Positions 30,681 to 48,936 of a stretch of DNA of 64,000 nucleotides are shown here, piece by piece. Position 1 is the first letter of the stretch, and each line of letters opens with the position of its first letter. The notes beneath the pieces are model-generated. The model was not told the DNA's origin. It did no database searches and saw nothing but the letters and a program-made list of their open reading frames with translations. The DNA comes from an uncultured Gammaproteobacteria bacterium. Lineage in GTDB: Bacteria > Patescibacteriota > Microgenomatia > Levybacterales > UBA12049. Made by a program: the position numbers and the translations under genes. The stretch spans positions 95,154-159,153 of the forward strand of contig CAZWXQ010000003.1 of assembly GCA_964637955.1 (NCBI GenBank), read 5' to 3'.

Positions 30681-32751
30681 AATATTAACTTTTTTCGGAA
30701 TTCTTTTATTAATATTTATTGTTTTCAGAAATTGGTTTAGTTTAAATCCACTTTCGGCTGGGGACTGGGGTTATAAATTTTCAGAAACTATTGGAAAATA
30801 TCCCATCTTTCCATATGCTTGGGATTCGACAGGATTCTCAACGGGGCTTGGAAAAATTGTTATTTTTTTAATCGGCTTAAATTCATATTTTCTATCAACC
30901 ACCTCTTTATTATTTAATAATTTAAATATTCCATGGGTTTTAATTGAAAGGCTGATTTGGTTTTGGCCATTTTTATTCATCAGTTTAATAGCGCCATATC
31001 TTTTATTCTCAAAAATATTTTCAAAAAAATTTGCTTTTATATCTTCGCTCGTTTTTCTTTTTAATTCATACATCCTAATGATAGTTGGTGGTGGTCAAAT
31101 GGGAATTGCAATGGCTTACTCTTTAGCGCCTTTAATATTACTCGCAGAAATTACTTTATTAAGAAATTTAGATACAAATAAAATTTCAAGGTTGACTGAT
31201 AGGGAGCAATTAAATAGATCAATTTTACTTGGATTCTTATTTTGTTTTCAATTAATTTTAGATATAAGAATTGCTTATATAACAATTGCTATGATTCTTA
31301 TTTATCTTGGTCTATGGATTTTTACTTTCTCTTTAAATAATGGATCAAAAATCGGTAAAATAAAATTTTTAATTAAAATTATTTTTTATTCATTATTTTT
31401 ACCAGGATTAATAAGCTTACTGCTTAATTTATTTTGGATACTTCCAGGAATAATTTCAGGTAGTAATCCGATTAATGATTTAGGATCTGCATATTCATCG
31501 ATTGAAGCTGTTAAATTTTTCAGTTTTGTAAAATTAGAAAATTCTCTCAGTCTAATGCATCCATATTGGTCGGATAATATTTTTGGAAAAACACGTTTTC
31601 TTGATCCAATATTTATAATTATTCCCATTCTCGCATTCAGTTCTCTTATCTACATTAAAAACTTATCAAAAGAAAAGAAATTTTTTATTATATTTTTCAA
31701 CCTCCTTGGATTAATTGGTATTTTCTTAGCGAAGGGTTCAAGTGATCCTTTGGGAGAGATATATTTGTGGTTATTTAACTATTTTCCTGGATTTTTTATG
31801 TTTAGAGATTCATCTAAATGGTACTTATTCATAGTAATTTCTTATAGCATTTTGATTCCATTTACTATTAGTAAAATTTATGAGAGTATCGAAAAATTTG
31901 ATAATGTTAAAAAATTTACAAAAAATAAAATATTAAATCTTCAGAACATATTTTTAATTTTAATAGGTATTTATTTCTTAACTCTTTTAAAGCCTGCGCT
32001 ATTAGGTCAACTTAACGGTACATTTAAGTCAGCTCAAGTTCCATTTGAATATATTCAACTCAAGAATTTACTAGAGAAGGATAAAAATTTTTCGAGAGTA
32101 TTATGGGTACCTCAAGCATCTCGTTATGGATATTATTCAGGTGATCATCCTGCTGTTTTGGCACAAGATTATTTAAAAATTTACGACTCAGAAAAAATTA
32201 TAAAAGAACTTAAGCAAAATAAATCAAAAGACGTATTTAGTCGTGCAGGGGTTAAATATATTATTGTTCCATATGATAATTTAGGAGAAATATTTTTAGA
32301 AGATAGAAAATATAGTGATAAAAATTATTCACATTATGTAAATAGCTTGAATTCGATAGGATGGATAAAAAGAGTTGGAAATTTTGGGAAAATTGTAATT
32401 TATGAAGCTCAAGATCCAAAAGATCATTTTTGGTGTGATTGTAATGCCCAGATAAATTTTAAATATATAAATTCTACGCTTTATACAGTTAATCTAAAAA
32501 ATGTAAATAAAGGAGATAAGTTAATTTTTAACGAAGCATACGACAAAAAATGGATTATGAAAAATTCCAATTTAAATATAAATTCAGAAAAATATGATAA
32601 GAAATACAATAGTTTTGTTCTTCCCGAAGGCTCATATTCTGCTCAGATATATTATTCAGCTCAAGACTGGCTTAGGATTGGGTTGATAATAAGCTTAATA
32701 ACATTTTTTAGTTTAATGATTATTATTTTTTACTTATATAAGAAGTATTAA
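30670..32751 (+). CDS. Large membrane protein (693 aa), paralog of the C-terminal architecture of 19615..22995. GT-C/YfhO-like candidate.
   Basis: N-terminal multi-TM region ('LSAGDWGYKF' near the start), extracytoplasmic domain, C-terminal anchor 'LRIGLIISLITFFSLMIIIFYLYKKY' nearly identical in pattern to 'FKVGLIISLITFLIISAYLIW'. Confidence 0.4.
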   Translation: MKIKILTFFGILLLIFIVFRNWFSLNPLSAGDWGYKFSETIGKYPIFPYAWDSTGFSTGLGKIVIFLIGLNSYFLSTTSLLFNNLNIPWVLIERLIWFWPFLFISLIAPYLLFSKIFSKKFAFISSLVFLFNSYILMIVGGGQMGIAMAYSLAPLILLAEITLLRNLDTNKISRLTDREQLNRSILLGFLFCFQLILDIRIAYITIAMILIYLGLWIFTFSLNNGSKIGKIKFLIKIIFYSLFLPGLISLLLNLFWILPGIISGSNPINDLGSAYSSIEAVKFFSFVKLENSLSLMHPYWSDNIFGKTRFLDPIFIIIPILAFSSLIYIKNLSKEKKFFIIFFNLLGLIGIFLAKGSSDPLGEIYLWLFNYFPGFFMFRDSSKWYLFIVISYSILIPFTISKIYESIEKFDNVKKFTKNKILNLQNIFLILIGIYFLTLLKPALLGQLNGTFKSAQVPFEYIQLKNLLEKDKNFSRVLWVPQASRYGYYSGDHPAVLAQDYLKIYDSEKIIKELKQNKSKDVFSRAGVKYIIVPYDNLGEIFLEDRKYSDKNYSHYVNSLNSIGWIKRVGNFGKIVIYEAQDPKDHFWCDCNAQINFKYINSTLYTVNLKNVNKGDKLIFNEAYDKKWIMKNSNLNINSEKYDKKYNSFVLPEGSYSAQIYYSAQDWLRIGLIISLITFFSLMIIIFYLYKKY

Positions 32752-32787: not shown

Positions 32788-33810
32788 ATGAAAATACTTG
32801 TAACTGGAGCAGGGGGCTTTATGGGGAGCCATTTGGTGGATGGGCTTGTTAAAGAGAATCAAAAAGTTTTTGCAGTAGATGATTTGTCTGGAGGATTTAA
32901 AGAAAATTTAAATTCAAAAAGTTATTTCACAAAGCTTGATTTAAGAGATGAAAAAAAAGTTTCTAAATATATACAAGAAATAAAGCCTGATGTTATTTAT
33001 CATCTTGCAGCAGATGCAACAGAAGGCAGAAGTCAGTTTACCCCTATAAATTGTACAGCAAGAAATTATATGGCTTATCTTAATCTTCTTGTGCCAGCTA
33101 TAAATAATGGATTAAAGAAAATAATTTTAACCTCCTCAATGAGCGTATATGGTTCACAGAAGCCTCCTTTTAATGAGGACATGGAGAGATTGCCAGATGA
33201 CATTTATGGAGTGTCTAAAGCGTCAATGGAGAAATCGACTGAAATTCTATCAAGTGTCCATGGATTTAAATATGTAATTATCAGACCTCATAATGTTTAT
33301 GGACCCAGACAAAATATGCAAGATCCCTACAGAAACGTCATAGCAATCTTTATTAACTGCTTGTTGGGAAATAAAAACTATTATATATATGGAGAAGGGA
33401 AACAAAAAAGAGCGTTTACATATATAGATGATTTTACGCCATATATTATTAAAGCTGGGAATTTAAAGAAGGCAGAAGGTGAAATTTTCAACATTGGTCC
33501 TATGCAAGAATATACTATTAAAGAGCTGTCAGATATAATCTTAAGAAATTTTTTTCCAGATGGAGATATTCCAAAAAAATTACTACCAAAATATTTGCCA
33601 ATTAGGCCAATGGAAGTTGTTGATGCCTGGAGCACTGTTAGTAAGGCGGAAAAAATGCTCGGTTATAAAACCTCTGTTAACCTTGAAGATGGAGTTTCTA
33701 AAATGATTCAGTGGGCTAAGCCAAAAGGATATTCGAAGTTCAAGTACTTGTCTGACTTAGAAATAAACAGTGATAAAACCCCAAATACTTGGAAGAAAAA
33801 ACTAATTTAG
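32788..33810 (+). CDS. NAD-dependent sugar-nucleotide epimerase/dehydratase (extended SDR)
   Basis: 'MKILVTGAGGFMGSHL', 'YGVSKASME'. Confidence 0.7.
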   Translation: MKILVTGAGGFMGSHLVDGLVKENQKVFAVDDLSGGFKENLNSKSYFTKLDLRDEKKVSKYIQEIKPDVIYHLAADATEGRSQFTPINCTARNYMAYLNLLVPAINNGLKKIILTSSMSVYGSQKPPFNEDMERLPDDIYGVSKASMEKSTEILSSVHGFKYVIIRPHNVYGPRQNMQDPYRNVIAIFINCLLGNKNYYIYGEGKQKRAFTYIDDFTPYIIKAGNLKKAEGEIFNIGPMQEYTIKELSDIILRNFFPDGDIPKKLLPKYLPIRPMEVVDAWSTVSKAEKMLGYKTSVNLEDGVSKMIQWAKPKGYSKFKYLSDLEINSDKTPNTWKKKLI

Positions 33811-33837
33811 TCATTTAAATGATATAATTAGATTCAT

Positions 33838-34767
33838 ATGTTAAGTGTAGTTATTCCTGTTTTCAATGAAGAAGAAAGCATTGCTCATTTCTATGAGGAG
33901 CTAAAAAAGCTTCTTCCATCTATTTCAAAAGAAAACGAAATAATATTTGTTGATGATGGATCATTTGATAGCACTTTAGGTATTATTAAAGACTTTGAAA
34001 AAAAAGATAAGTCAGTGAGTGTATTTTCATTTAGGAGAAACCATGGAAAAGCAGAAGCATTAACTTATGGTTTTCAAAAAGCAGAAGGCGATTTGGTTCT
34101 AACACTTGATGCAGATCTTCAAGATAAGCCCTCTGAAGTACACAAATTACTGGAAAAACAAAAAGAAGGATATGATTTGGTTTCTGGATGGAGAAAAAAT
34201 AGAAAAGATTCATTTGCAAAAATAATATTTTCAAAGACTTTTAACGCAGTGGCAAGGGCTTTTTGGAAAACAAAACTTCATGATTATAATTGCGGGCTGA
34301 AGCTTTATACCAGAGATGCAGCAAAATCTCTAAATCTATATGGTGGAATGCATAGATTTATTCCGCTGCTGCTTGCTCAAGAGGGATTTAGAATAACAGA
34401 AGTAGCAGTTGAACATGATGTAAGGCGTTTTGGTAAGTCGAAATACAGTGCATGGAAGGTTCTTACGCAACTTCCAGATATGATGACTATGTTATTTTTG
34501 AGTAAATTTTCCCAAAGGCCTTCTCATTTTTTTGGATTCTTGGGGGCCGTAATGTCATTTTTTGGGATTTTAATATTATTTTATCTAACTATCATACATT
34601 TCCAAGGAGAATCAATTGGCACAAGGCCACTTTTGAATCTTGGAATGCTCTTAATAATAGCTGGAATTCAAGTAGGGCTAACGGGGCTAATTGGAGATAT
34701 GATTTTAAGTACATCCAAAAAAGACCAAGTAAAAATGATGGATTTAAAATACCCTGAAAGTGAGTGA
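33838..34767 (+). CDS. Polyprenol-phosphate glycosyltransferase (GT2; ArnC/GtrB/DPM1 family) with C-terminal TM helices
   Basis: 'MLSVVIPVFNEEESIAHFYEEL...EIIFVDDGSFDST...FRRNHGKAEALTYGFQKAEGDLVLTLDADLQD' plus two C-terminal TM helices, the canonical GtrB/ArnC layout. Confidence 0.8.
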   Translation: MLSVVIPVFNEEESIAHFYEELKKLLPSISKENEIIFVDDGSFDSTLGIIKDFEKKDKSVSVFSFRRNHGKAEALTYGFQKAEGDLVLTLDADLQDKPSEVHKLLEKQKEGYDLVSGWRKNRKDSFAKIIFSKTFNAVARAFWKTKLHDYNCGLKLYTRDAAKSLNLYGGMHRFIPLLLAQEGFRITEVAVEHDVRRFGKSKYSAWKVLTQLPDMMTMLFLSKFSQRPSHFFGFLGAVMSFFGILILFYLTIIHFQGESIGTRPLLNLGMLLIIAGIQVGLTGLIGDMILSTSKKDQVKMMDLKYPESE

Positions 34768-35031: not shown

Positions 35032-35601
35032 ATGGATAATATTAATAGTAAATCTAACGGGATAAAAATCGGAATTGATGTTAGTCAGCTTGCATACCCA
35101 AATACCGGAGTAGCAAATATTCTTAAAAATTTAATAAATACACTTCTTGAAACAGATAGAAAAAACGAATATGTTTTTTTCTTTTCGAGTTTACGCGGTA
35201 ATCTTGATCCAGAATTTTTAAAGCATCAAAAAAATCCTCAAGTGGAAATAAAAATGTTTAAATTTCCACCTTCTTTTTTAAACTTTTTATGGAACAAGCT
35301 TCATATCCTGCCTATAAATTATTTAATTGGCCCCGTTGATTTGTTTATTACTTCTGACTGGACTGAGCCCCCAATTAAAAAATCTAAAAAATTAACAATA
35401 ATTTATGATTTAGTTATTTTTAAAAGTCCCGAAGAAACGCATAATAAAATAGTAGAAACTCAAAAAAGAAAGCTTAAATGGGTAAAGAAGGAATCCGATA
35501 TGATTATAACTATTTCGCAGTCTAGCAAAAGAGATATTGAGAATATACTTCATATAGATTCTAAAAAAATAAGAGTAATATATCCCGGATTTAGCTTATG
35601 A
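35032..35601 (+). pseudogene. Truncated GT4 glycosyltransferase (N-terminal Rossmann domain only)
   Basis: 189 aa 'IGIDVSQLAYPNTGVANILKNL...NEYVFFF' aligns to the N-domains of the GT4s at 7206, 35598 and 44918. It ends ('IRVIYPGFSL*') where their C-terminal catalytic domain begins; no EGFG motif. Confidence 0.5.
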
Positions 35602-36737
35602 ATATAGGAATAAACGGTTATGAAGCAGTAGTTCCAAGGTTTGGATTTGAAAAGAACACAGGACTTCCAAATAGAGTGGGAAGTAGTGAGTTTTGTTATC
35701 AGCTTCTAATGGCACTCTCAAAAGTTGAGAATAAGAATAAATATTTTATTTATCTTCCAGTTGAGCCAACTTCAGATATGCCAAAAGAAACTTCTAATTG
35801 GAAATACGAAGTAATTAAGTCGAAGAAAATCTGGACAATTACAGCTTTGGGTAAAAAACTCATAAAAAATAATGACAAACTCGATGTATTTTTTAGTCCT
35901 ACTCACTATGTTCCATTTATGTTTTCAATTCCGACTGTAATTTCAATTCTAGATGTGTCTTATATTCATTTTCCAAAATTATTTAATAACAAAGATCTGA
36001 TAAAGTTAAAGTATTGGGGAAAATATTCGATTGGAAGATCTAAGAAAATTATTACGATAAGCGAATCAAGTAAGAGTGATATAATCAAAACATATCAGTT
36101 AAATTCCGAAACAGTAGAGGTAGTTTACCCCGGAGTTAAGAACGATCTGAATAAGAGTAAAAAAGAATTAAGTATGGATGATTTGAGTAAAAATTTTGGT
36201 GTCGATGAAAAATATATCCTGTTTGTTGGTACTCTTCAGCCTCGAAAAAATATCGTAAGACTTATTGAAGCATTTTCAAAAATTGACAGTAACGTATTGC
36301 TTGTAATAATTGGTCGAAAAGGATGGCAATTTGAAGAAATATTAGATGCACCGAATAAGTTTGAAGTTAAAGAAAGGGTGATATTCTTAGAAAATATTGT
36401 GGATGAGGATTTACCCGCGTTTTATGAAAATGCAGAGTTTTTTATTCTTCCAAGTCTTTACGAAGGATTTGGTTTGCCAGTTCTTGAGGCCATGAAGTAC
36501 GATTGTCCTGTCATAACAAGTAACGTAAGTAGTCTCCCAGAGGCAGGAGGGAACGCAGCTCTTTATGTGGATCCTAAAGACACAGATGATATTTCTAAAA
36601 ATATGCAAAAATTACTTGATGATAAAGAGTTGAGGTCTGAATTAGTAAAAAAAGGAAAAGAGCAAATTAAAAAATTCTCATGGCAGCAGTCTGCAAAAGA
36701 TACACTTAAGGTTTTAGAGGAGGTAGCAAATGCTTAG
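35598..36737 (+). CDS. Glycosyltransferase family 4
   Basis: 'SLYEGFGLPVLEAMKYDCPVITSNVSSLPE'; ATGA overlap with the upstream fragment. Confidence 0.8.
   Translation: MNIGINGYEAVVPRFGFEKNTGLPNRVGSSEFCYQLLMALSKVENKNKYFIYLPVEPTSDMPKETSNWKYEVIKSKKIWTITALGKKLIKNNDKLDVFFSPTHYVPFMFSIPTVISILDVSYIHFPKLFNNKDLIKLKYWGKYSIGRSKKIITISESSKSDIIKTYQLNSETVEVVYPGVKNDLNKSKKELSMDDLSKNFGVDEKYILFVGTLQPRKNIVRLIEAFSKIDSNVLLVIIGRKGWQFEEILDAPNKFEVKERVIFLENIVDEDLPAFYENAEFFILPSLYEGFGLPVLEAMKYDCPVITSNVSSLPEAGGNAALYVDPKDTDDISKNMQKLLDDKELRSELVKKGKEQIKKFSWQQSAKDTLKVLEEVANA
36457..36487 (+). repeat. 31-nt stretch identical to 7981..8011
   Basis: Exact match 'tttacgaaggatttggtttgccagttcttga'. Confidence 0.6.
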
Positions 36738-37284
36738 GAAGATTAAAAGAAGAACGAGTACTTTAATAAGAGAATTTGAGAATATGTTAATGGCTTGGTG
36801 TGGGCATGTTCCTTCTCATCATTTCAGAAGATTTATTTACCGACTTGGAGGAATGAAGATTGGAAAAGGATCCACAATTCATACAGAAGCCAAATTTTAT
36901 AATGCAAAAAATATAAAAATTGGAAAAGATACCATTATAGGAGAAGGAGCTGTTCTTGACGGACGCGATAAACTTCTGATTGGTGATCACGTGGATTTAG
37001 CATCAGAAGTGATGATTTATAATTGTGAACATGATGTTAATGATCCTGATTTCAAGTCGTCCTGTGGGGTTGTTGAAATTGGAGATTATGTATTCATCGG
37101 TCCAAGGGTGATAATTCTTCCTGGGGTAAAGATTGGAAAAGGAGCTGTAGTCGGGGCTGGAGCAGTTGTTACTAAAGACATCGAAGAATTTAAGATAGTT
37201 GGTGGAGTTCCCGCAAAAGAAATTGGTGAGCGAAAAAATAAAACCCCAAATTATAAATTAGGAAGAGCTGCCTGGTTTAGATAG
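36730..37284 (+). CDS. Hexapeptide-repeat (LbH) acetyltransferase
   Basis: 'VFIGPRVIILPGVKIGKGAVVGAGAVVTKDIEEFKIVGGVPAKEI'. Confidence 0.75.
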   Translation: MLRKIKRRTSTLIREFENMLMAWCGHVPSHHFRRFIYRLGGMKIGKGSTIHTEAKFYNAKNIKIGKDTIIGEGAVLDGRDKLLIGDHVDLASEVMIYNCEHDVNDPDFKSSCGVVEIGDYVFIGPRVIILPGVKIGKGAVVGAGAVVTKDIEEFKIVGGVPAKEIGERKNKTPNYKLGRAAWFR

Positions 37285-37285
37285 T

Positions 37286-38137
37286 ATGCCGGAAGTCACG
37301 ATAATTATTCTTACATATAACTCCGAAAGCTACATTGAAAGCTTACTAAAAAGTCTTAAGGATTTTGCAAAAGGTCAGGAGATTATCGTCGTGGATAATG
37401 CTTCGTCAGACGAAACTACAAAAATTGCTAAAAAATTTGATTCTTCAAAAGTTATAGAAACTGGAGAAAATTTAGGCTTTGCTAAAGGAATTAATTTGGG
37501 TTCTAAAAAAGCAAGAGGAAGGTTTTTGTTATTTTTAAATCCTGATGCAGCTTTTGAAAAAGGTAATATTGAAGATTTGACTAAGATATTTGAATCGCAT
37601 GAAAAAGTTGGCGTAGTAGGAGGCAAACTAATTGGGAAAGATGGAAAGCCTGAAAAATCTGCAGGCAAGTTTTTTAATTTTTTTGAAGTAGTAATGATTG
37701 CACTCGGACTCGATGAAAAATTTGGGCTGAGATATTCTCCTGAAAAAATCACCAAAGTTGATTTTGTAAGCGGTGGATTTATGATGGCAGAAAAAGAATT
37801 GTTCCAAAAATTAAGCGGCTTTGATGAAAATTTCTTTATGTACGTCGAGGATATGGAGCTTTGCTATAGAGTAAAGAAAAGTGGATATAAAGTTTATTTT
37901 ACACCTGAAGTAGTAATTTCACATGTTGGACAAGGAAGTAGTAATAGAAGTTTTGCCGTCATCAATATTTATAAAGGTATAATTTATTTCTTCAAAAAAC
38001 AAAAATATCCTATTGAATACTTTACTGTAAAATTGATATTTTGCTCTAAGGCTATTACGCTTTACTTACTAGGAATAATTTTAAATAACAGTTATTATAA
38101 AAGCACTTACAAAGAAGCTTTTAAAGCAATTAAATAA
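37286..38137 (+). CDS. Glycosyltransferase family 2
   Basis: 'VTIIILTYNSESYIESLLKSLKDF..EIIVVDNASSDET', 'YVEDMELCYR'. Confidence 0.75.
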   Translation: MPEVTIIILTYNSESYIESLLKSLKDFAKGQEIIVVDNASSDETTKIAKKFDSSKVIETGENLGFAKGINLGSKKARGRFLLFLNPDAAFEKGNIEDLTKIFESHEKVGVVGGKLIGKDGKPEKSAGKFFNFFEVVMIALGLDEKFGLRYSPEKITKVDFVSGGFMMAEKELFQKLSGFDENFFMYVEDMELCYRVKKSGYKVYFTPEVVISHVGQGSSNRSFAVINIYKGIIYFFKKQKYPIEYFTVKLIFCSKAITLYLLGIILNNSYYKSTYKEAFKAIK

Positions 38138-38138
38138 T

Positions 38139-41100
38139 ATGAAAAAGGTACTTAAACTTATTTGGGATAATATTTTATTCATAGAAACAATATTTCTGTT
38201 AATATTTATTCCACTTTATCCTAAGCTTCCACTTCTGGATATACGAAACACATGGGTGTATATAAGAGCTGAAGATTTTATAGTTTTTTTCGTTTTAATC
38301 TCATGGATCATCCTTTTAATAAAAGAAAAAATCACATTTAAGACTCCACTAACTATTCCAATTCTCCTGTTTTGGATAATTGGTGCTATCGCGACTACTC
38401 ATGGTGTTCTTCTTATCTTTCCTGAAATTTCAAATGTTTATCCGAATGTAGCTTTCCTGAGTCTAGTCAGACATATCGAATATATGAGCGTGTTCTTCAT
38501 CGCGTTCGCAGCGATAAAAACAAAGAAACAACTAAATATCGTTCTTGCAACAGTAGTAGGTACGCTAGTTGGGGTAATATTCTATGGTTTTGGTCAGAAA
38601 TATCTTGGATTCCCTGCATACCTTACAATGAACGAAGAGTTTGCGAAGGGAGTTCCATTGAAGCTGTCTGAATTATCTCGTGTCCCGTCGACTTTTGCAG
38701 GACATTATGATCTTGCAGCATATTTAGTTTTCGTTATTCCAATTCTAATAAGTCTTTTCTTTGGTGTAAAAAATTGGATTATTAAAATTGTGCTGCTCGT
38801 AATTTCATTTTTAGGCTTCATTTTGTTGTTTATGACAGTTTCAAGGGTTTCTTTCGTCGTTTTATTTGCTGCACTTTTGGTAGTTTTCTTTTTTCAAAAA
38901 AAGAAACTTGTTTTGCTTTCAATTCCTCTAGGAATCATATTTGTTGTATTCCTTCTTACTTTCCAGTCATCACTTTTTGATAGATTTAAGAGTACCGTTT
39001 CTGAGGTTGATGTAGTAGTTGATGCGAAAACCGGTGAATCGCTGGGGCATGTTAAGTTTGTAGATAAAGGGTATCTTAAAGATAAATTAGTTCTTCAAAA
39101 CCGAGTTAAGGATAGTAAAGAATTGGCAAAAGCTATTACAGATTTAGAGGGAAATTCCGAATATTATTCATCTTCATCTGCAATACTTCCATTCAGATAC
39201 ATTCCTCCTGAGGTTCCATTAGTTCAATCTGTAAACATATCAAACGGAGAAAGTCTCGGACAAGGAACAGGATATATCAATTTATATTTGTCACCAGTTG
39301 TAAAGAGAATTGGGAATTTTTATTTAGAACTTCCTCCTGATTTCAAATCATCTCCCTCCGCGCAATTTTTAGTGCTTCATGGAGATTTCATTGTAAAAAG
39401 AGCTTCTGCCTATGATTTATCTTTTACGACTAGATTCCAAGGAGAATGGCCGCATGCAATTGAGGCATTTAAGAGAAATGTCCTATTTGGTAGTGGTTAT
39501 GGCTCGGTAAGTCTAGCTGTGGATAATAATTATCTTAGAATTCTTGGGGAGATTGGAATCGTTGGATTCTTATCATTTTTCTTGATATTTCTTAGCCTCG
39601 CAATTTACATCAGGAAAGTTTTTCCAGACATAGATTCAAAATTTGTTAAAAGTTATATTATTGGGTTTGGTGCAGGTGTAATCGGGCTTGCTTTAAATGC
39701 AACTTTAATTGATGTTTTTGAAGCTTCAAAGATAGCATTTCTTCTTTGGATTATGTCAGGAGTTACTTTTGGGGTCCTTCTTTTATATCAAAAAACTAAA
39801 TTTGATCTTTTTGATGAAATTAAAAAAGTTGCCACTTCGACATATGCAATCATTATTTATTTATTCTTTGCATGTCTTCTTTTATTTTCACCTACCTTAA
39901 GTAATTATTTTGTTGGAGATGATTTTACTTGGCTGCGTTGGGCTGCAGATCCACAAGGGTCAAACTTTCTCTCTATTGTCACAAATTACTTTACGAAGTC
40001 AGATGGGTTCTTCTACAGACCAGGAACCAAATTGCTCTTTTATTTAATGTATGAATCATTTTGGCTAAATCAAATCATGTATCATCTAGTTTCGATGCTT
40101 CTTCATTTCAGTGTTGCTGCATTGTTTTATCTTCTTGCAAGAAAGATTTTTAAGAATAATGTCCTTGCAGCTACATCTGCATTTATTTTTGTAATTTTGA
40201 GTGGAACTGCAGAGGCTATTCTTTGGATTTCTTCAATTGGCCACTTGATTACAGCGGCGCTTGGACTTTTGGGCCTATTATTCTTTACTCTTTGGGACGA
40301 AAAGAAGAAAATATATTATTTCATTGGCACTATAATTTCATTTTCTCTAGCACTTCTTTTCCAGGAAATTTCAATCGCATTTCCGCTTCTCATCCCAGCC
40401 TATATTTTATTTAAAGATACTTCACTTGCTTCTCTCAAAAGTGCTCTAAAAAGATGGGACTTTTTAGCCCTGTTTATACCGGTATTAATTTATTTAGGAA
40501 TGAGATTTGTATCTCAAAGTCATTGGACAGGAGGAGATTATAGTTATAATCTTATCCTTTTACCTTTTAATTTCATTGGAAACGCTGTTGGATATGCGTT
40601 ACTAACGTTACTAGGTCCTTTGTCGATCTCGATTTATAACATTCTTAGAAATGTTATGCGAGAGAATATAGTTGTTGCCATTATAGCTTTACCTTTCATT
40701 GCTTTGTTTATATACGCTTCATATAAATTTATCTATAAATCATTAAATAAAAATGAAAAGAGCATTGTTATTTTTGGTCTTCTACTTTTTATAATTACTT
40801 TACTTCCAGTAATTGGGCTTGGCAATATAGCTTCCCGACACGCTTATTTTGCATCAATGGGGTTAGTTCTTGTTTTTGTTCTAGGACTTAAGAAAATATA
40901 TGAATATCTGCTTAGTAGTGGAAAAGAGATTGCGATAGGCACTGTTGTAGTGATATTTTCCGTTTTTGCACTTTTCCATATTATTCAAGTTCAGCAAAGT
41001 TATTTCGAATGGAGAGAAGCTGGAAATAGGGTAAAGAATTTCTTTATCTCCTATGATGCATTATATGAGTCGCAGTGGACAAGCCCTGAGGCACAATTTC

Positions 41101-41342
41101 ATTTTGTAAATGTTCCAACAAAAATCGGAAATGCATGGATATTTCCAGTAGGAATTAATGACGCAGTTTGGTTCGCATTTAGGAATAAAGATGCGAAGGT
41201 TTTTGTGCATCAAGATCTTAAAAATGCACTTGATCAAGCAGGATATTATAAATCCAGGCCAATTCTTCAGTTTAATGAAGATGGTTCTGTAAAACAGATT
41301 GATAAATTTAGAGGAGTACCTCCGGAATTGATAAAGCCGTAG
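38139..41342 (+). CDS. Fusion membrane protein (1067 aa): N-terminal O-antigen ligase/Wzy_C-like domain plus C-terminal GT-C-like domain
   Basis: Residues ~1-520: multi-TM with a large loop and terminal 'LFGSGYGSVSLAVDNNYLRILGEIGIVGFLSF' (compare WaaL/Wzy_C 'GxGxG..HNxYLqxLxExGiiG'). Residues ~570-1067: a second multi-TM module starting 'YFVGDDFTWLRWAADPQG' (GT-C acidic loop motif) with a C-terminal soluble domain. Confidence 0.5.
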   Translation: MKKVLKLIWDNILFIETIFLLIFIPLYPKLPLLDIRNTWVYIRAEDFIVFFVLISWIILLIKEKITFKTPLTIPILLFWIIGAIATTHGVLLIFPEISNVYPNVAFLSLVRHIEYMSVFFIAFAAIKTKKQLNIVLATVVGTLVGVIFYGFGQKYLGFPAYLTMNEEFAKGVPLKLSELSRVPSTFAGHYDLAAYLVFVIPILISLFFGVKNWIIKIVLLVISFLGFILLFMTVSRVSFVVLFAALLVVFFFQKKKLVLLSIPLGIIFVVFLLTFQSSLFDRFKSTVSEVDVVVDAKTGESLGHVKFVDKGYLKDKLVLQNRVKDSKELAKAITDLEGNSEYYSSSSAILPFRYIPPEVPLVQSVNISNGESLGQGTGYINLYLSPVVKRIGNFYLELPPDFKSSPSAQFLVLHGDFIVKRASAYDLSFTTRFQGEWPHAIEAFKRNVLFGSGYGSVSLAVDNNYLRILGEIGIVGFLSFFLIFLSLAIYIRKVFPDIDSKFVKSYIIGFGAGVIGLALNATLIDVFEASKIAFLLWIMSGVTFGVLLLYQKTKFDLFDEIKKVATSTYAIIIYLFFACLLLFSPTLSNYFVGDDFTWLRWAADPQGSNFLSIVTNYFTKSDGFFYRPGTKLLFYLMYESFWLNQIMYHLVSMLLHFSVAALFYLLARKIFKNNVLAATSAFIFVILSGTAEAILWISSIGHLITAALGLLGLLFFTLWDEKKKIYYFIGTIISFSLALLFQEISIAFPLLIPAYILFKDTSLASLKSALKRWDFLALFIPVLIYLGMRFVSQSHWTGGDYSYNLILLPFNFIGNAVGYALLTLLGPLSISIYNILRNVMRENIVVAIIALPFIALFIYASYKFIYKSLNKNEKSIVIFGLLLFIITLLPVIGLGNIASRHAYFASMGLVLVFVLGLKKIYEYLLSSGKEIAIGTVVVIFSVFALFHIIQVQQSYFEWREAGNRVKNFFISYDALYESQWTSPEAQFHFVNVPTKIGNAWIFPVGINDAVWFAFRNKDAKVFVHQDLKNALDQAGYYKSRPILQFNEDGSVKQIDKFRGVPPELIKP

Positions 41343-41362: not shown

Positions 41363-42838
41363 ATGAAAAGACTGACAATCCTTCTTTTTCTCGGAATTCT
41401 TGCCCTTGGATTTCTTCTTAGACTTTATAGATTTGATAATCCAATTGCAGATTGGCATTCGTGGCGTCAAGTTGATACATCTTCTGTTTCAAGAAATTTT
41501 GCTGAAAATGGATTTGATTTACTTCACCCAAAATATCATGATTTATCAAATGTTCCTTCAGGGAAAGAAAATCCAAATGGTTATAGGTTCGTAGAGTTCC
41601 CAATATATAATGTTTTTCAAGCCGGAGGTTTTAAGTTAATTGGAATCATGTCGCTTGAAGAATGGGGAAGATTGGTGACCATAATCACCTCACTCTTTTC
41701 AATTACTTTCATATTCTTGTTGCTTAGAAAATATGCTGATGACAAAGTGGCCCTTTTTTCATCATTTTTGTTTGCTGTTATTCCTTACAATATTTACTAT
41801 GGTCGAGTTGTATTGCCAGATCCACTTATGGTGACAGCTGTACTTGGTGGAATTTATTTCTTTGATTTATGGATAAATAATGGGAAAAAACTTAATTTAT
41901 CTAAAGAGATTTTATTTGCAATCTTAACTCTTATTTTTACCGTGGGTGCATTTTTACTAAAACCATATGCTTTGATTTTTACACTTCCAATCGTTGCTAT
42001 TGCATACAATGCTTATGGTTTTTCAATGTTTAAAAAATGGAAACTTTGGGTTTTTGGAGTTCTTGCTATTTTGCCATTGGTTTTTTGGAGAATATGGATG
42101 CTAAATTATCCAGAAGGAATTCCTGTAAGCGACTGGCTCTTGAATGGAGGAGGTATAAGATTCAAGGGAGCATTTTTTTATTGGATTTTTGAAAACAGAA
42201 TTGGTGGATTAATTTTAAGTTTCTGGGGAGCGGGACTACTTGTTATGGGGCTACTTATAAATTCTAATTCTGAAAAATCTTATGGATTCAAGAAAGGTCA
42301 AATGCTTATTTTTTGGTCGTTTTTAGTTTCATCATTGGCATATCTAGTTATAATTGCGAGGGGAAATGTTCAACATGATTATTATCAGATTCTAATTATG
42401 CCAACACTTGTAATCTTTGCAGGTCTTGGTGCAAAATTATTCATAGATCCACCTTTTGATTTAATTAAAAAATATGTAAGTTACCCAATGCTTGCGGTTA
42501 TTACTTTTTTCATGATAGCTTTTGGGTGGTACGGTGTTCGAGACTATTTTAATATAAATAGATCCTCAATTTTAGTTGCCGGTGCAGCAGCAGATAGATT
42601 GCTTCCAAAAGACGCTTTAGTAATAGCCAACTACGAAGGAGACACCACATTTCTATATCAAACGAAAAGAAGTGGTTGGGCAAGCTACACAAAGGAGCTT
42701 CCTGAAATGATCAATATGGGTGCAGATTATTTGATTTTAGCGGATCCTAAGGAATCAGATTTAGAATTTGGAAATACCTATAAAATAATAGATCAAAAAC
42801 CAGAATACATAATTTTTGATCTTCATCAAAATCCATGA
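41363..42838 (+). CDS. GT-C fold membrane glycosyltransferase (ArnT/PMT_2-like)
   Basis: 491 aa polytopic protein. 'LRLYRFDNPIADWHSWRQVDTSSVSRNF' is typical of GT39/83-type N-termini. Confidence 0.5.
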   Translation: MKRLTILLFLGILALGFLLRLYRFDNPIADWHSWRQVDTSSVSRNFAENGFDLLHPKYHDLSNVPSGKENPNGYRFVEFPIYNVFQAGGFKLIGIMSLEEWGRLVTIITSLFSITFIFLLLRKYADDKVALFSSFLFAVIPYNIYYGRVVLPDPLMVTAVLGGIYFFDLWINNGKKLNLSKEILFAILTLIFTVGAFLLKPYALIFTLPIVAIAYNAYGFSMFKKWKLWVFGVLAILPLVFWRIWMLNYPEGIPVSDWLLNGGGIRFKGAFFYWIFENRIGGLILSFWGAGLLVMGLLINSNSEKSYGFKKGQMLIFWSFLVSSLAYLVIIARGNVQHDYYQILIMPTLVIFAGLGAKLFIDPPFDLIKKYVSYPMLAVITFFMIAFGWYGVRDYFNINRSSILVAGAAADRLLPKDALVIANYEGDTTFLYQTKRSGWASYTKELPEMINMGADYLILADPKESDLEFGNTYKIIDQKPEYIIFDLHQNP

Positions 42839-44007
42839 AAATTTTAGTGGTTTCATCATACCTTCCATATCCGTTAATTGATGGAGGAAAAATAAGATTA
42901 TTTAATATTCTAAAAATTTTAAGCGAAAACCATGAAATAACTTTAATTTGCGAAAAAAGGTCAAATCAAACGCAAAAAGATATTGCGGAAGTTTCTAAGA
43001 TTTGCAAAAAAGTTATTTATGTGGAAAGACCAAAAGCATGGTCTATATCTAATGTTTCCAAATCGCTTTTAACATTAGATCCTCTGTTAACAATCACCCA
43101 CTCAAGCAGGGAAATGAAATCTAAAATTTCTCAAGAGTTAAAAAATGAAAACTACGATCTTATTCATATTGAAACTTTTTACGTCATGCAAAATTTACCC
43201 AAAACTAGTATTCCAATTGTTCTTGCGGAGCATAATATTGAATACCAAGTTTATGAAAAATACGCATCCAAGGCATCAATTCTGATTCGTCCTGGATTAA
43301 AGTTTGATATTTTCAAATTAAAAAGACGCGAAATTCAGGCTTGGAAAAGAGCATCTAAAGTAGTTTCTGTTTCTCCAAAAGAACAAAAATTAATTGGTCC
43401 TAAAACAGGTCTAGTGTCAAATGGAGTTGATTTAAATAGATTTAAATTTGTAAAGAAAAATTTAAACAAGAAAGAGAAAAAAGTACTATTCATCGGAAAT
43501 TTTAGTTGGGTTCAAAATCGTGATTCAGTAGCATTCATAATAAGAAATATTTGGCCAAAGATAATTTTAAAAAATGAAAATTATAAGCTTTGGATTGTTG
43601 GGAAAAAAATTCCAGATTCTTTAAAAGTTCTTTCAGATAAATCAATTATTTTTGATGAAAACGCTCCAAGTGAAACTGAACTAATTTTCCAGGAAGCAGA
43701 TCTTCTTCTTTCTCCAATCCGAGTTGGGGGTGGAACCAATTTTAAAATACTTGAATCAATGGCAGTTGGGACGCCCGTGATTACTAGCTTTCTTGGAAAT
43801 GAAGGGTTAAGCGCTCAAAATATGAGTGAAATTTTAATTGCAGAAAAACCCGAAGAGTATGCCAGACTTTCATCGCAAATTCTTAATGATAATTATCTAT
43901 ATGAAAAAATTACTAGAAATGCAAGGACATTTATTGAAGAAAATTATGATTGGGTTAAAATTACTCAAAAATTAGAATCAATTTATAAAGAGGTAGTGAG
44001 AAAATAA
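42835..44007 (+). CDS. Glycosyltransferase family 4
   Basis: 'GGGTNFKILESMAVGTPVITS'. Confidence 0.75.
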   Translation: MKILVVSSYLPYPLIDGGKIRLFNILKILSENHEITLICEKRSNQTQKDIAEVSKICKKVIYVERPKAWSISNVSKSLLTLDPLLTITHSSREMKSKISQELKNENYDLIHIETFYVMQNLPKTSIPIVLAEHNIEYQVYEKYASKASILIRPGLKFDIFKLKRREIQAWKRASKVVSVSPKEQKLIGPKTGLVSNGVDLNRFKFVKKNLNKKEKKVLFIGNFSWVQNRDSVAFIIRNIWPKIILKNENYKLWIVGKKIPDSLKVLSDKSIIFDENAPSETELIFQEADLLLSPIRVGGGTNFKILESMAVGTPVITSFLGNEGLSAQNMSEILIAEKPEEYARLSSQILNDNYLYEKITRNARTFIEENYDWVKITQKLESIYKEVVRK

Positions 44008-44048
44008 TCTTTCGACTTCCTTAGGGTTATATTAATTATGTTTGAATT

Positions 44049-44921
44049 ATGAAAAAACTGACAATTTCGATTGTTAATTACAACAGTGGTGAGTATCTGA
44101 TAAATTGTCTTGAGTCGTTGAGAAAAATAAATTCAGAATTAGAATTTGACGTTATCATTCTTGATAATGATTCCAGCGATGAAAGTTTCATTATTGCTAA
44201 AAATAAATTTCCACAATTTGAATTTATAGATAATGAAGATAATTTAGGATTTGGTAAAGCACATAATATAGCTTTAAAAAAAGCAAAAACGTCATATCTG
44301 TTAACGCTTAATCCGGACTGTGAAGTTCCACCTAAAACTCTCAAATTTATTTATGATTTTATGGAGGAAAATTCTGATGTAGGAGTGGCAACGAGTAAGG
44401 TTGAAAAAGCAGATGGAACACTCGATATTGCTTCTCACAGAGGATTCCCGACTCCTAGAGCATCTTTCAAATATTTTTTTCTCAAAGACGATAAAGAGTA
44501 TCACCTGACAGATCGCGATATGAACGAAACACATGAAATCGACTCCGCTGTTGGAGCATTTATGTTTATGAGAAAAGAAGTGCTAGATAAAGTGGGATAT
44601 TTTGATGAAGATTATTTTCTTTATGGAGAAGATTTAGATTTATGTTTTAGGATTAAAAAAGCTGGATTTAAAGTAATCTATATACCGCAGGTAAAAGTGT
44701 TACACATAAAAGGAGTTTCTTCAGGAATTAAAAAGCATAGTCAGAATGTTTCCGGGGCAAATGAAAAAACAAAAAGCTTATCTACTTTTTATTTTTATGA
44801 CACAATGAAGATTTTTTACAAAAAACATTATGCAAAAAATTATCCGGGAATTTTTAACTGGTTTATTTATAGGGGAATTGATCTCAAACTTTTTATGGCA
44901 AAAAGAAAGAAAAATGTATGA
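44049..44921 (+). CDS. Glycosyltransferase family 2
   Basis: 'LTISIVNYNSGEYLINCLESL...DVIILDNDSSDES', 'GEDLDLCFR'. Confidence 0.75.
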   Translation: MKKLTISIVNYNSGEYLINCLESLRKINSELEFDVIILDNDSSDESFIIAKNKFPQFEFIDNEDNLGFGKAHNIALKKAKTSYLLTLNPDCEVPPKTLKFIYDFMEENSDVGVATSKVEKADGTLDIASHRGFPTPRASFKYFFLKDDKEYHLTDRDMNETHEIDSAVGAFMFMRKEVLDKVGYFDEDYFLYGEDLDLCFRIKKAGFKVIYIPQVKVLHIKGVSSGIKKHSQNVSGANEKTKSLSTFYFYDTMKIFYKKHYAKNYPGIFNWFIYRGIDLKLFMAKRKKNV

Positions 44922-46051
44922 CTATCGGAATTGATGCTAGGCTTTGGAATCAAACTGGAGTAGGAAGATATATAAGAAATTTGACTCTTAATTTACTTGA
45001 TATCGACAAAGAAAATAGTTATGTCTTATTTGTAAGAGCGTTAGATAGAGATGAAATCGAGAGTCAAATTTCTAAATTTAAAATTAAAAATTTAAAATTA
45101 GAAATTGTTATTGCCAATATTGCTTGGCATTCTCTTAAAGAGCAATTAAATTTCCCAAAAATAATTGATAAAGAAAATGTTGACGTAATGCATTTCACTT
45201 ATCAGCAAAGTGTCCCGATCTTTTATAAAAAACCCTATGTAATTACGATTCATGATTTAATAAAACATCATTATATAACCGGAAGATCTTCCACTAATCC
45301 ATATTGGCTTTTGGGATTTAAAATGATTGCGTATAAAACGCTTATAAATATCGGAAGTAAGAATGCAAATAAAATCATTGCTGTTTCCCAGAGTACAAGA
45401 GATGAGATAGTTGATCACCTCACTGTCAATAAAAGAAATATAGATGTAATTTATGAAGGGGTTGATGATTTTAAAATCTCAAAACCTGGAAAAAATGAAA
45501 TTGGGGATTATTTTTTATTTGTTGGAAATGTGTTTCAGCATAAAAATACAAATAATCTCATTAAAGCTTTTAAAAAAGTAATAGAAGCAAAAGATGTTAA
45601 ATTAGTTTTTCTTGGGAGACAGGATTATTTCTTAGAAAAACTTAAAAAGGATGTTAAAAAATTAATTGATTCAAATCAGATAATGTTTATAGAAAGTGCA
45701 AGCGATAGTGAAATGGCCACTTTGTATAAAAACTCAATCTGCTTGATTCGTCCATCTTTTATGGAGGGTTTTAGTCTTCCTCCTCTTGAGGCTTTTGAAT
45801 CTGGTACTTTGGCACTTGTTTCTGATATTCCAGTACACAAAGAAATTCTTAAAGACTTTGCAATTTATTTTAATCCGAGAGACTTCGTTGACATGGAAAG
45901 CAAAATGAATTATGTTTTAAGTCTAGATAAAAAGAAGCGCGAAGCAATGATTAAAAATGGCAAGAATCTTGCAGATAAATTTTCTTGGAAAAAAACAGCA
46001 GAAGAGACGCTTAAAGTTTATGAAAATATATTTTCTTTAAATTCAATCTGA
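44918..46051 (+). CDS. Glycosyltransferase family 4
   Basis: 'MTIGIDARLWNQTGVGRY' N-domain and 'SFMEGFSLPPLEAFESGT' C-motif. Confidence 0.75.
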   Translation: MTIGIDARLWNQTGVGRYIRNLTLNLLDIDKENSYVLFVRALDRDEIESQISKFKIKNLKLEIVIANIAWHSLKEQLNFPKIIDKENVDVMHFTYQQSVPIFYKKPYVITIHDLIKHHYITGRSSTNPYWLLGFKMIAYKTLINIGSKNANKIIAVSQSTRDEIVDHLTVNKRNIDVIYEGVDDFKISKPGKNEIGDYFLFVGNVFQHKNTNNLIKAFKKVIEAKDVKLVFLGRQDYFLEKLKKDVKKLIDSNQIMFIESASDSEMATLYKNSICLIRPSFMEGFSLPPLEAFESGTLALVSDIPVHKEILKDFAIYFNPRDFVDMESKMNYVLSLDKKKREAMIKNGKNLADKFSWKKTAEETLKVYENIFSLNSI

Positions 46052-46069
46052 TATCTTCTTAAGACAGAA

Positions 46070-47149
46070 ATGAAAGTTGCGATAGTTTATGACAGGTTAA
46101 ATAAGTGGGGTGGTGCAGAAAGAGTTCTCTTAGCGCTGCATAAAATATTTCCAGAAGCTCCTCTTTTTACCTCAGTTTACAGTAAAGATGGAACTGCTTG
46201 GGCGGATTCTTTCGATGTGAAACCATCTTTTCTTCAGAATTTAAAATTTATGCAAAAACATAATGAAATGCTTGCGCTTCTAATGCCAGTTTCATTTGAG
46301 TCATTTAATTTTGATGAGTATGATTTGGTTATTTCTGTAACGAGTGAGTCTGCAAATGGAATTATTACTAAGCCTGGTACACTTCATGTTTGTTACTGTC
46401 TCACCCCCACAAGGTACCTGTGGAGCGGGTATGATGAGTATTTTAGAGGAGGATTTATGAAAACTATGTCATTGCCTGCGTTAAAATACTTGAGGCGATG
46501 GGATAAATTATCTTCTTCTAGGCCTGATGATTATATTGCTATATCTACTGAGGTGAAGAATAGAATAAAGAAATTTTATGATAAGGATTCCGAAATAATT
46601 TTCCCGCCAGTTATGATTGATCAAAAGGTTTTAAAAAAAGAAAAAAGCGAGGATTTTTATCTCCTAGTCTCAAGATTGTCGCGTCTTTCTTATTATAAAA
46701 AGGTTGATTTGGCGATCGATGCATTTAATAAAACTGGTTTAAATCTGAAAATTGTTGGAAGTGGTCCACTTGAAAAAAAACTTAAGAAAAATGCACGAAG
46801 TAATATAGAATTTTTAGGGCATTTGACAGATGATGCACTTAGCTATTACTATGAAAAGTGCAAAGCTTTAGTGTTTCCAGGTCTCGAAGATTTTGGACTC
46901 GTAATGGCAGAAGCACAGTTATTTGGAAAGCCTGTTATAGCATATGGAGCAGGTGGAGCTCTTGATATAGTAAAAGATGGAAAGACTGGAAAATTGTTTT
47001 ATAAGCAGGAAACAGATGTGCTTGTCAATGCATTGAAAAGCTTCGATGAAAGTGTTTATAATAAGCGGGATATTCAAGAAAGCGCGAAGAGATTTAGCTT
47101 TGAAAAGTTCAAGTTAGATTTAGAAAATTATATAAGTAAAAGAATATAA
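46070..47149 (+). CDS. Glycosyltransferase family 4
   Basis: 'GLEDFGLVMAEAQLFGKPVIAYGAGGALDIV'. Confidence 0.7.
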   Translation: MKVAIVYDRLNKWGGAERVLLALHKIFPEAPLFTSVYSKDGTAWADSFDVKPSFLQNLKFMQKHNEMLALLMPVSFESFNFDEYDLVISVTSESANGIITKPGTLHVCYCLTPTRYLWSGYDEYFRGGFMKTMSLPALKYLRRWDKLSSSRPDDYIAISTEVKNRIKKFYDKDSEIIFPPVMIDQKVLKKEKSEDFYLLVSRLSRLSYYKKVDLAIDAFNKTGLNLKIVGSGPLEKKLKKNARSNIEFLGHLTDDALSYYYEKCKALVFPGLEDFGLVMAEAQLFGKPVIAYGAGGALDIVKDGKTGKLFYKQETDVLVNALKSFDESVYNKRDIQESAKRFSFEKFKLDLENYISKRI

Positions 47150-47151
47150 AT

Positions 47152-48237: not shown

Positions 48238-48240
48238 TTT

Positions 48241-48906
48241 ATGCCCTACGTTGAAATAAAAAAAAGCTTTTTTTACGAAACTATTAAAAGGGTTATTGAT
48301 ATAGTTTTATCTATTGTTTTAATACTTTTATTTTCTCCAGTTATTATTATTGTTGCTATTGCAATAAAAATAAATTCTAAAGGTCCTATTCTTGCAGATA
48401 CACCAGAGAGGGTAGGAAGAAGTGGAACTTTATTTAAGATGTATAAGTTTCGCTCCATGGTCGAGAATGCACATGAATTGCTTCGTGAAGACCCTGAATT
48501 TGCACAGCTTTATAAGGACTATAAAAAAGGTAGTTATAAATTAAAAGATGACCCAAGAATTACTGGAGTTGGTCATTTCATTAGAAAGCACTCTCTTGAT
48601 GAAGTGCCTCAATTTTTTAATATTTTAAAAGGGGAGATGAGTTTAGTCGGACCCCGAGCATACTATCCTGATGAATTACGTGATCAGCAGTTAAGATATC
48701 CGCACACAAGAGAATCAGTAAAAGTCGTGCTTTCTGTGCGTCCTGGTGTAACCGGCTTCTGGCAGGTTTCAGGAAGAAGTGAGATAAACTTTGATAAAAG
48801 AATAGAAATGGATGCCGAATATGTTAAAAAAAGATCAATTATTTATGACATGAAGCTTATCTTCAGAACCCCAGGTGCCATGATCTCCGGTAAAGGCGCA
48901 CTTTAG
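48241..48906 (+). CDS. Small monotopic polyprenyl-phosphate phosphoglycosyltransferase (PglC/WbaP C-domain type 'bacterial sugar transferase')
   Basis: 'KGPILADTPERVGRSGTLFKMYKFRSM' and 'DEVPQFFNILKGEMSLVGPR' signature; 221 aa with one N-terminal membrane helix. Confidence 0.85.
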   Translation: MPYVEIKKSFFYETIKRVIDIVLSIVLILLFSPVIIIVAIAIKINSKGPILADTPERVGRSGTLFKMYKFRSMVENAHELLREDPEFAQLYKDYKKGSYKLKDDPRITGVGHFIRKHSLDEVPQFFNILKGEMSLVGPRAYYPDELRDQQLRYPHTRESVKVVLSVRPGVTGFWQVSGRSEINFDKRIEMDAEYVKKRSIIYDMKLIFRTPGAMISGKGAL

Positions 48907-48907: not shown

Positions 48908-48936
48908 TTGACACGGCAGGTGAATCGTGATAAATT
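48908..48936 (+). promoter_or_regulatory. Sigma70-like promoter candidate: TTGACA (48908-48913), 17-nt spacer, TAAATT (48931-48936). ATG at 48945, only 8 nt downstream, so leaderless-type.
   Basis: Hexamers and spacing read directly; no SD possible in the 8-nt gap. Confidence 0.4.

Follow-up and report, generated by a model that had tools for sequence, protein, structure and literature searches.

WaaL, a ligase of glycosyltransferase (GT) family GT121 with a solved structure (Protein Data Bank (PDB) entry 7TPG), has the GT-C_B fold, with 12 transmembrane (TM) helices, a long outside loop between TM9 and TM10, and the signature GxGxG...xNxYLxxLxExGxxG. O-ligases have two arginines and a histidine; in SEDS proteins and inverting BP-Pols, Asp or Glu takes the place of the histidine (PMC10920833). 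In the WadA proteins of Brucella and Mesorhizobium, a Wzy_C-type module (GT121) and a second glycosyltransferase (GT25) serve one glycoconjugate (PMC10920833, PMC9938171). Membrane glycosyltransferases with the GT-C_A fold include PMT (GT39), ArnT (GT83), the GtrC-type enzymes, and the GT136 systems. These carry two acidic residues in the first outside loop and end in a domain outside the membrane, and an ArnC/GtrB-like polyprenyl-phosphate-sugar synthase is encoded alongside them; three-component extracytoplasmic glycosylation systems are described among them, and the GT136 enzyme ORF12 has a C-terminal carbohydrate-binding module (PMC11127046). The protein considered here combines the two fold classes in one chain. 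It is encoded on the forward strand at positions 38139-41342 of a 64,000-nucleotide stretch of DNA, referred to below as the window (contig CAZWXQ010000003.1 of assembly GCA_964637955.1, positions 95,154 to 159,153). Both of its modules come from known superfamilies and their pairing is uncharacterised; a literature search found no description of an Asp-type Wzy_C module fused to a polytopic GT-C_A module. With a probability of roughly 60%, we regard the protein as a bifunctional extracytoplasmic enzyme that combines en-bloc polymerisation or transfer of a glycan linked to undecaprenyl pyrophosphate (Und-PP) with glycosylation from a sugar linked to undecaprenyl phosphate (Und-P). The fusion probably couples two steps of cell-surface glycan assembly on the outside of the membrane.

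The gene is a single uninterrupted open reading frame (ORF) of 1067 codons with ~23 predicted TM helices in its product. It is initiated by an ATG two bases past the stop of the upstream GT2 gene, and the reading frame is continuous across the junction of the N- and C-terminal halves (nucleotides 39760-39860). This is exactly the 1067-residue polypeptide that a first-pass annotation of the sequence had described, and the motifs quoted there lie where they were placed, GSGYGSVSLAVDNNYLRILGEIGIVG at residues 451-476 and FVGDDFTWLRW at residues 591-601. A search of a 5.8-billion-protein collection returned 1344 matches, the best 120 of which are all 1046-1089 residues long and cover 97-100% of the query at 55-100% identity. 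These 120 homologues derive from NCBI, JGI, ENA, and Logan assemblies; those with organism names are assigned to Levybacteria, Roizmanbacteria, or “Patescibacteria group,” and the databases call them “hypothetical protein” or “O-antigen ligase family protein.” Public databases name the fusion by its N-half alone. When one genome per GTDB species was scanned, relatives were found to be encoded at 475 loci. The best 80 of these, on which the locus statistics given here are based, are all full-length, belong to Levy-, Roizman-, Woese-, and Gottesmanbacteria, and include the complete chromosome CP066685.1. An ORF of at least 1000 residues runs without interruption in 77 of the 80, and two of the remaining three are cut by contig ends. 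The two-module layout exceeds chance by far, and because the same ORF is present in many independent assemblies, the fusion is not an assembly artefact; the fused protein is real and widely conserved in Microgenomates, within the candidate phyla radiation (CPR). The earlier description of the architecture as unusual holds among characterised proteins but not within the Microgenomatia, where the fusion is the rule. The window itself has a G+C content of ~30% and carries every gene on one strand, as is typical of Microgenomatia-type organisms. The title “uncultured Gammaproteobacteria bacterium” is borne by many third-party annotation records of metagenome-assembled genomes (L009-L088) that have the gene in the same gene order, and looks like a mislabel; some of the contigs so titled are 0.56-0.94 Mb long, like a near-complete CPR genome.

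The N-module (residues 1-552; 38139-39794, + strand) is placed by profile matches and by its predicted structure in the Wzy_C / GT-C_B superfamily, as a divergent WaaL/Wzy/SEDS-like member with 12 predicted TM helices and predicted cytoplasmic termini. Wzy_C (PF04932) is the sole Pfam family matched, in 31 of 41 N-halves of the family (best E 5.8e-8) and in eight of nine full-length homologues; it is also the precomputed annotation of homologues P0092 and P0103 and of the split orthologue at locus L005. The window protein scores 22.8 bits at full length and 26.1 bits with the N-half alone (E 8e-6 to 9e-5), where the Pfam gathering cutoff is 31.7 bits. In the profile scan proposed by the first-pass annotation, Wzy_C is thus matched by most of the family, and the window protein itself scores below the cutoff. 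The match comes in two pieces, with profile positions 2-72 at residues ~222-295 and positions 67-149 at residues ~420-481, which shows that an insertion splits the domain. This insertion (residues ~287-426; 38997-39416, +) is beta-rich in the AlphaFold2 model and lies in the long loop that joins TM9 to TM10 on the outside (residues 276-464); it is variable in more distant and in split homologues. Within it, the segment STGExLPQGTGYINLxLSPV is strongly conserved and has low model confidence, and split-gene relatives have other sequence there. NCBIfam gives the N-half a weak match to the IctB family (TIGR00947), which we take to be a relative of Wzy_C; an identity as a “bicarbonate transporter” was rejected as a misleading family name.

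The full-length AlphaFold2 model, built from a 64-sequence alignment, has a mean pLDDT of 79.4 and a pTM of 0.79, and Foldseek matches it to WaaL (7tpg_B) with a probability of 1.00 and a TMt of 0.60. A separate model of the N-half, built from a shallower alignment (pLDDT 64.7), has 7TPG as its sole confident match (E 0.039, probability 1.00, TMt 0.53); FtsW and RodA are weak fold matches far behind it. The 12 predicted TM helices, the long loop, and the WaaL/RodA-type similarity are those of the GT-C_B fold in the classification of Alexander and Locher. The comparison with WaaL, together with the Wzy_C matches of the homologues, thus bears out the earlier view of the N-half as a multi-TM, Wzy_C-like module with a large loop.

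The residues of the N-module were compared with those of E. coli K-12 WaaL (from NC_000913), in which R215, R288, and H338 are at the expected positions. R236 (in TVSRVSF; 38844-38846, +) is placed on R215 (in TQTRATL) by both hhalign and local alignment and is the putative equivalent ligand of the Und-PP phosphate; the hhalign comparison of the N-half profile with E. coli WaaL is marginal overall (E 0.05), with the R215 region sensibly aligned. The Wzy_C C-terminal signature (39489-39566, +) contains D462 (39522-39524, +) at the position of the catalytic histidine of WaaL. In an ungapped alignment anchored on the GxxG before TM10, D462 falls on H338, with DNNYLRILGEIGIVG set against HNEIIEAGSLKGLMG; a gapped local alignment of the motif chose an upstream AEHNRLR repeat over H338, and the ungapped, anchored alignment was used. 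Across 92 N-halves, among them those of distant fused representatives and split-gene forms, there is no variation at R236, R432, D462, R467, E471, or eleven more charged residues, and the Asp is retained in all split N-halves. The GT121 histidine (His313 of 7TPG, H338 of E. coli WaaL) is therefore Asp in 92 of 92 sequences, as the first-pass annotation had seen in one, and the Asp/Glu with one or two arginines that characterises inverting BP-Pols and SEDS proteins is found here as the invariant D462, R236, and R432. For the second phosphate-binding arginine, the candidates are the invariant R432 and R467, one of which would correspond to R288 of E. coli WaaL and R265 of 7TPG.

Compared with WaaL, the N-module shares the fold, the long TM9-TM10 loop, the signature, and the first arginine; it differs in its invariant Asp in place of His, in its beta-rich insertion of ~140 residues, in its sub-threshold Pfam score, and in being joined to a second membrane glycosyltransferase. 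The host is of the monoderm CPR type, in which a lipid A-core acceptor is not expected. Because Asp at the His position is the signature of SEDS proteins and inverting Wzy polymerases, the label “ligase” of the first-pass annotation is doubtful; the relationship to Wzy_C and WaaL stands, the Asp favours polymerases, and the module is better called Wzy/WaaL-like. With the inverting Wzy polymerases and the SEDS proteins RodA and FtsW (clan GT-C1; GT119 and GT125-129) it shares a clan-level fold, conserved arginines, and an acidic residue at the His position (PMC10920833). Unlike Wzy enzymes, which usually stand alone and vary greatly, the protein is fused and strongly conserved.

The membrane part of the C-module (residues 568-974; 39840-41060, +) has ~11 predicted TM helices in a GT-C_A fold and is followed by a predicted extracytoplasmic alpha/beta domain of ~95 residues (975-1067; 41061-41339, +). 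The model is confident in this half, with pLDDT mostly 85-97, and runs from TM1 through an outside loop with short helices that bears D594 and D595, and then through about ten more TM helices to the C-terminal domain; another outside loop, S794-Y803, is conserved and flexible. Foldseek ranks STT3 and PglB highest for the full model (E 3e-3 to 7e-2, probability 1.00), followed by Pmt4, Pmt1/2, AftA, ALG6, ALG9, AftD, AftB, and EmbB. All of these are GT-C_A enzymes, and Pmt4, AftA, and ALG9 likewise match with a probability of ~1. The motif FVGDDFTW (residues 591-598) lies in the first extracytoplasmic loop after TM1, where D594 and D595 of the extended motif (39909-39941, +) are the presumed catalytic acidic pair. 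Among 75 C-half homologues, including 27 fused and 37 stand-alone forms, F591 and D595 are conserved in all 75 and D594 in 70; D594, R627, P628, H649, E692, W696, E743, R789, R900, and W958 are each present in at least 88%.

No Pfam or NCBIfam match was found, even at E<=1, for the C-half of the window protein or of nine homologues. A profile built from 12 C-halves and searched against 1.84 billion representative proteins gave 37,568 matches at E<=1e-3 and 129 at E<=1e-30, which marks out a large GT-C_A family with no Pfam or NCBIfam model. The stand-alone distant relatives P0249 (C-half profile E 1e-30; PMT_2 41.7 bits) and P0270 carry Pfam PMT_2, and the PMT_2 ORF at 708-2381 of the window matches a broadened C-half profile with E 3e-9. 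A direct Pfam PMT_2 match is absent from the C-half, so that the links to PMT_2 are transitive alone, and an hhalign comparison of the C-half profile with the adjacent PMT_2 protein gave no signal. The GT-C-like second module with an acidic loop that had been proposed from the sequence is thus upheld by the fold matches and the transitive link, and the PMT_2 profile search suggested with it returned nothing directly. The window also holds a stand-alone paralogue of the C-module (29007-30680, +), a polytopic protein of 557 residues with the loop FFEQDEW, which is matched by the broad C-half profile in hmmsearch (E 1.4e-41) and has no Pfam or NCBIfam match of its own.

The C-module shares with the PMT, ArnT, GtrC-type, and GT136 systems the features listed above, and it differs from them in having no direct PMT_2 match and no GtrA- or MATE-type flippase recognised near it, and in being joined to Wzy_C. 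By analogy with the carbohydrate-binding module of ORF12, the C-terminal outside domain is possibly acceptor- or glycan-binding. STT3 and PglB (GT66) are the top fold matches but have an outside domain of at least ~250 residues and the motif WWDYG; the sequence links of the fusion go to PMT_2. An oligosaccharyltransferase identity was rejected, as the fusion has no WWDYG (indeed no WW dipeptide anywhere) and an outside domain of only ~95 residues. The WadA proteins differ in that their partner is a globular, Leloir-type GT25 and their ligase His signature is kept. No GT25 (Glyco_transf_25) match was found in the fusion, whose partner is instead a polytopic GT-C_A module with an outside-facing site and presumably a lipid-phosphate-sugar donor.

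The two modules are connected by a Lys-rich linker with a short helix (residues 551-567; 39789-39839, +) that is predicted by the model to be cytoplasmic, with the C-terminal domain outside. Topology was taken from the model helices, with sides assigned by alternation and checked by the positive-inside rule: the density of Lys and Arg is 0.29 in predicted cytoplasmic loops and 0.06 in short outside loops. Invariant residues make up 98 of 472 positions on the predicted outside and 1 of 73 inside. This outside bias and the charge pattern suggest that both active sites face outside. The linker is conserved in sequence, and it is at this point that the stop/start junction lies in two-gene relatives.

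To survey fused, split, and stand-alone forms, the matches of the C-half profile were taken as representatives at 50% identity, of which the best 150 were considered. About 35 of the 150 are fusions of ~1000 residues that also match the N-half profile; the others include many fragments and some proteins of 450-540 residues with the C-half alone. Two proteins at first taken as stand-alone C-halves, P0121 and P0125, were rejected as contig-edge fragments. The first-pass annotation had asked whether homologues occur as two genes, and such genes were found: at three loci (L006, L090, and L091), the C-half gene is directly preceded, with synteny preserved, by an N-half homologue that matches the N-half profile with E 1e-124 to 1e-129 and is 37% identical to the N-half of the window protein. 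The junctions at these loci are a TGATG overlap, a 12-nucleotide spacer, and a 22-nucleotide spacer. At a fourth locus, L005, the halves overlap by 20 nucleotides at an A-run, which could be a frameshift. Because related lineages encode the halves as adjacent and sometimes translationally coupled genes, the two are regarded as a conserved functional pair that is fused in one large clade.

The analysis shows the ORF and its conservation, the folds and families, the conserved residues, the predicted topology, the operon, and the split-gene relatives; donors, acceptors, a polymerase rather than a ligase reaction, and the sequence of steps are inferred. In the proposed mechanism, the Bac_transf, GT4, and GT2 proteins of the operon would build an Und-PP-linked oligosaccharide in the cytoplasm, and a putative flippase would move it across the membrane before the N-module acts. 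The N-module (GT-C_B; CAZy clan GT-C1) would then transfer this oligosaccharide en bloc; R236 and R432 would hold the pyrophosphate, and D462 would be the base that activates the acceptor. Because this acceptor-activating residue is Asp and not His, the N-module is most likely of the polymerase type and would join repeat units like Wzy rather than act as a classical ligase. The C-module, a PMT/ArnT-type GT-C_A enzyme, would use a polyprenyl-phosphate monosaccharide from the ArnC/PgfS-like GT2 (33838-34767) and add the sugar, via the D594-D595 loop, to the same glycan or to its acceptor; the C-terminal outside domain probably aids acceptor binding. Such a step would work on the same principle as in the three-component extracytoplasmic glycosylation systems, whose GT-C likewise has a glycan-binding domain at its C-terminus (PMC11127046). 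The fusion, or the coupling of adjacent genes, would keep the two outside-facing active sites together and so couple their steps.

Several observations weigh against this reading. The Wzy_C score of the window protein is itself below the Pfam gathering threshold, the Foldseek E-values are modest (3e-3 to 4e-2), and sequence-profile searches with the full-length, C-half, and N-half alignments gave no meaningful PDB match. The equivalence of D462 with the ligase His comes from a motif-anchored sequence alignment, and the loop concerned has low pLDDT. At one locus, L007, a C-half gene stands between GT2 and GT4 genes, near ABC-2 transporter genes, without a Wzy_C neighbour, and the activity of the C-half is therefore not strictly dependent on the N-module. 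The protein is highly conserved, at ~50% identity or more across several candidate phyla, unlike the hypervariable Wzy and like WzyE and SEDS proteins. Finally, the 64-kb window yielded no recognisable Wzx/MOP flippase, ABC transporter, or Wzz-type chain-length regulator, and a complete Wzy-dependent pathway is therefore not demonstrated.

Some of the same evidence lends itself to the main alternative, which is tentative, with a real but minor chance of being correct. In it, the N-module would be a genuine ligase or O-oligosaccharyltransferase of the WaaL, PglL, or WsfB kind that attaches the completed Und-PP-linked glycan to a final acceptor, and the C-module would first put the monosaccharide on that acceptor or would bind it. 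The acceptor might then be a surface or S-layer protein, a glycolipid, or peptidoglycan, following a WadA-like logic, for which there is the precedent of a ligase fused to the glycosyltransferase that completes its acceptor by adding the last core sugar (PMC10920833, PMC9938171). WaaL is the closest solved structure, some homologues are named “O-antigen ligase family protein” by NCBI, and the PMT_2 relatives of the C-half belong to a family with protein O-mannosyltransferases; the high conservation suits a fixed acceptor, and neither Wzz nor Wzx was found in the window. However, where O-ligases and PglL-type enzymes have their defining histidine, the fusion has an invariant Asp, the state of SEDS proteins and polymerases (PMC10920833), and no acceptor protein or lipid was identified. 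The Asp weakens the ligase alternative, although it could still be the base in a ligase.

It is very unlikely that one module alone is catalytic, with the C-half a degenerate scaffold, acceptor-holder, or chain-length control for Wzy_C, or the reverse. Pseudo-enzyme partners are known among membrane glycosyltransferase complexes, and the lack of a Pfam or NCBIfam match for the C-half would fit such a role, but charged residues facing outside are invariant in each of the two modules, a conservation pattern typical of active GT-C enzymes. That a sequencing or assembly frameshift in this contig created the fusion is hardly credible. There are A-rich runs at the junction, the overlap at the A-run of L005 could be such a frameshift, and genuine two-gene versions exist; nevertheless, the same ORF is present in more than 120 clusters and in 77 of 80 species genomes, from many studies and assemblers and from a complete chromosome, and the linker is conserved in sequence. 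To return to the bifunctional enzyme, a bolder form of that proposal, which we consider unlikely, is that the protein is the core of a Microgenomatia-specific and possibly essential envelope machine, in which an Asp-base, SEDS/Wzy-like polymerase is hard-wired to an unclassified PMT-like GT-C that either primes the acceptor (protein or peptidoglycan) or attaches the polymer to it. If so, one protein would both polymerise and anchor or decorate a conserved wall glycopolymer, replacing the Wzy, Wzz, ligase, or LCP functions that are separate in other bacteria.

No earlier description was found of a GT-C_B lipid-pyrophosphate-glycan polymerase or ligase coupled to a GT-C_A lipid-phosphate-sugar transferase. 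The occurrence of the pair in fused and split forms is Rosetta-stone evidence that the two classes of extracytoplasmic enzyme act as a complex, an idea relevant to better-studied Wzy-dependent systems with post-polymerisation glycosylation. The invariant His-to-Asp change may also serve as a simple marker with which to judge whether proteins annotated as “O-antigen ligase family” in monoderm and CPR genomes are in fact polymerases.

The fusion lies within a strongly conserved + strand operon of ~14 genes, whose product is probably a signature surface glycan of the Microgenomatia. The operon includes an epimerase (starting at 32788) and an ArnC/PgfS/GtrB-like GT2 (33838-34767) that matches the NCBIfam models ArnC (E 1e-48) and PgfS (E 2e-45) over the full length, both below their equivalog cutoffs. 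Upstream of the fusion there follow a protein with a GT4 N-domain, a GT4, a hexapeptide acyltransferase, and a GT2 (35032-38137). Downstream are a stand-alone PMT_2 GT-C (41363-42838) and then a GT4, a GT2, two further GT4s, a sugar-1-phosphate nucleotidyltransferase, and a Bac_transf priming phosphoglycosyltransferase (42835-48906). The same gene order is present in contigs of 0.86-0.94 Mb from relatives. Among the 73 informative loci of the best 80, the PMT_2 gene adjoins downstream in 69 and the GT2 gene upstream in 63. The ArnC/PgfS-like GT2, which is kept in L001 and L003, is by sequence likely a polyprenyl-phosphate-sugar synthase that supplies donor to the GT-C_A modules. With the epimerase before it, it forms a pair (32788-34767) that resembles the PgfE-PgfS protein-glycosylation pair of Streptococcus mutans and the ArnC step of lipid A modification and that probably makes the lipid-phosphate-sugar donor for the many GT-C genes. 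Directly before the complete GT4 (35598-36737) is a 189-residue protein with the Glyco_transf_4 domain only (35032-35601). This arrangement recurs in 62 of the 80 loci, with proteins of 177 and 383 residues in L001 and of 189 and 374 residues in L005, and the small protein looks like a conserved stand-alone half-GT4 and not a broken gene.

The first ~52 kb of the window (1-51800) consists of contiguous glycan-biosynthesis genes, all on the + strand, with at least four PMT_2-type GT-C genes (708-2381, 9630-10961, 41363-42838, and the fusion). The window also holds many GT2 and GT4 genes, several epimerases and dehydratases, an aminotransferase, an FkbM methyltransferase, and a carbamoyltransferase (27208-29007). 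No lipopolysaccharide genes were seen in the window; the general view of Patescibacteria is that they have no outer membrane. Polytopic proteins at 2435-4183, 29007-30680, and 30670-32751 have no Pfam assignment; the first (582 residues) and the last (693 residues, with a weak MmpA-like NCBIfam match, E 6e-6) are candidate flippases or GT-C proteins. At 19615-23308, a 1126-residue protein with a weak DUF5667 match is followed by a multi-TM protein of 108 residues. A similar pair, of 1129 and 122 residues, lies upstream of the stand-alone C-half gene at L007 (163-3905 of that locus), and the two may represent a conserved surface-protein module linked to glycosylation genes.

A GTG-initiated ORF of 286 residues at 48927-49787, rich in Arg, Gln, and Pro and without a family match, is a putative gene that sits where the G+C content rises from ~0.30 to ~0.39. 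No Rfam RNA was found there, and the Rfam scan of the window found no RNA genes, with no tRNAs. A DUF2079 membrane protein is encoded at 56739-58202. The start of a dcw cluster lies at 58397-63041, with an MraZ-like ORF (recognised by eye from its translation), MraW, a class B penicillin-binding protein, and a Mur ligase; the organism therefore makes peptidoglycan, a possible acceptor for a glycopolymer.

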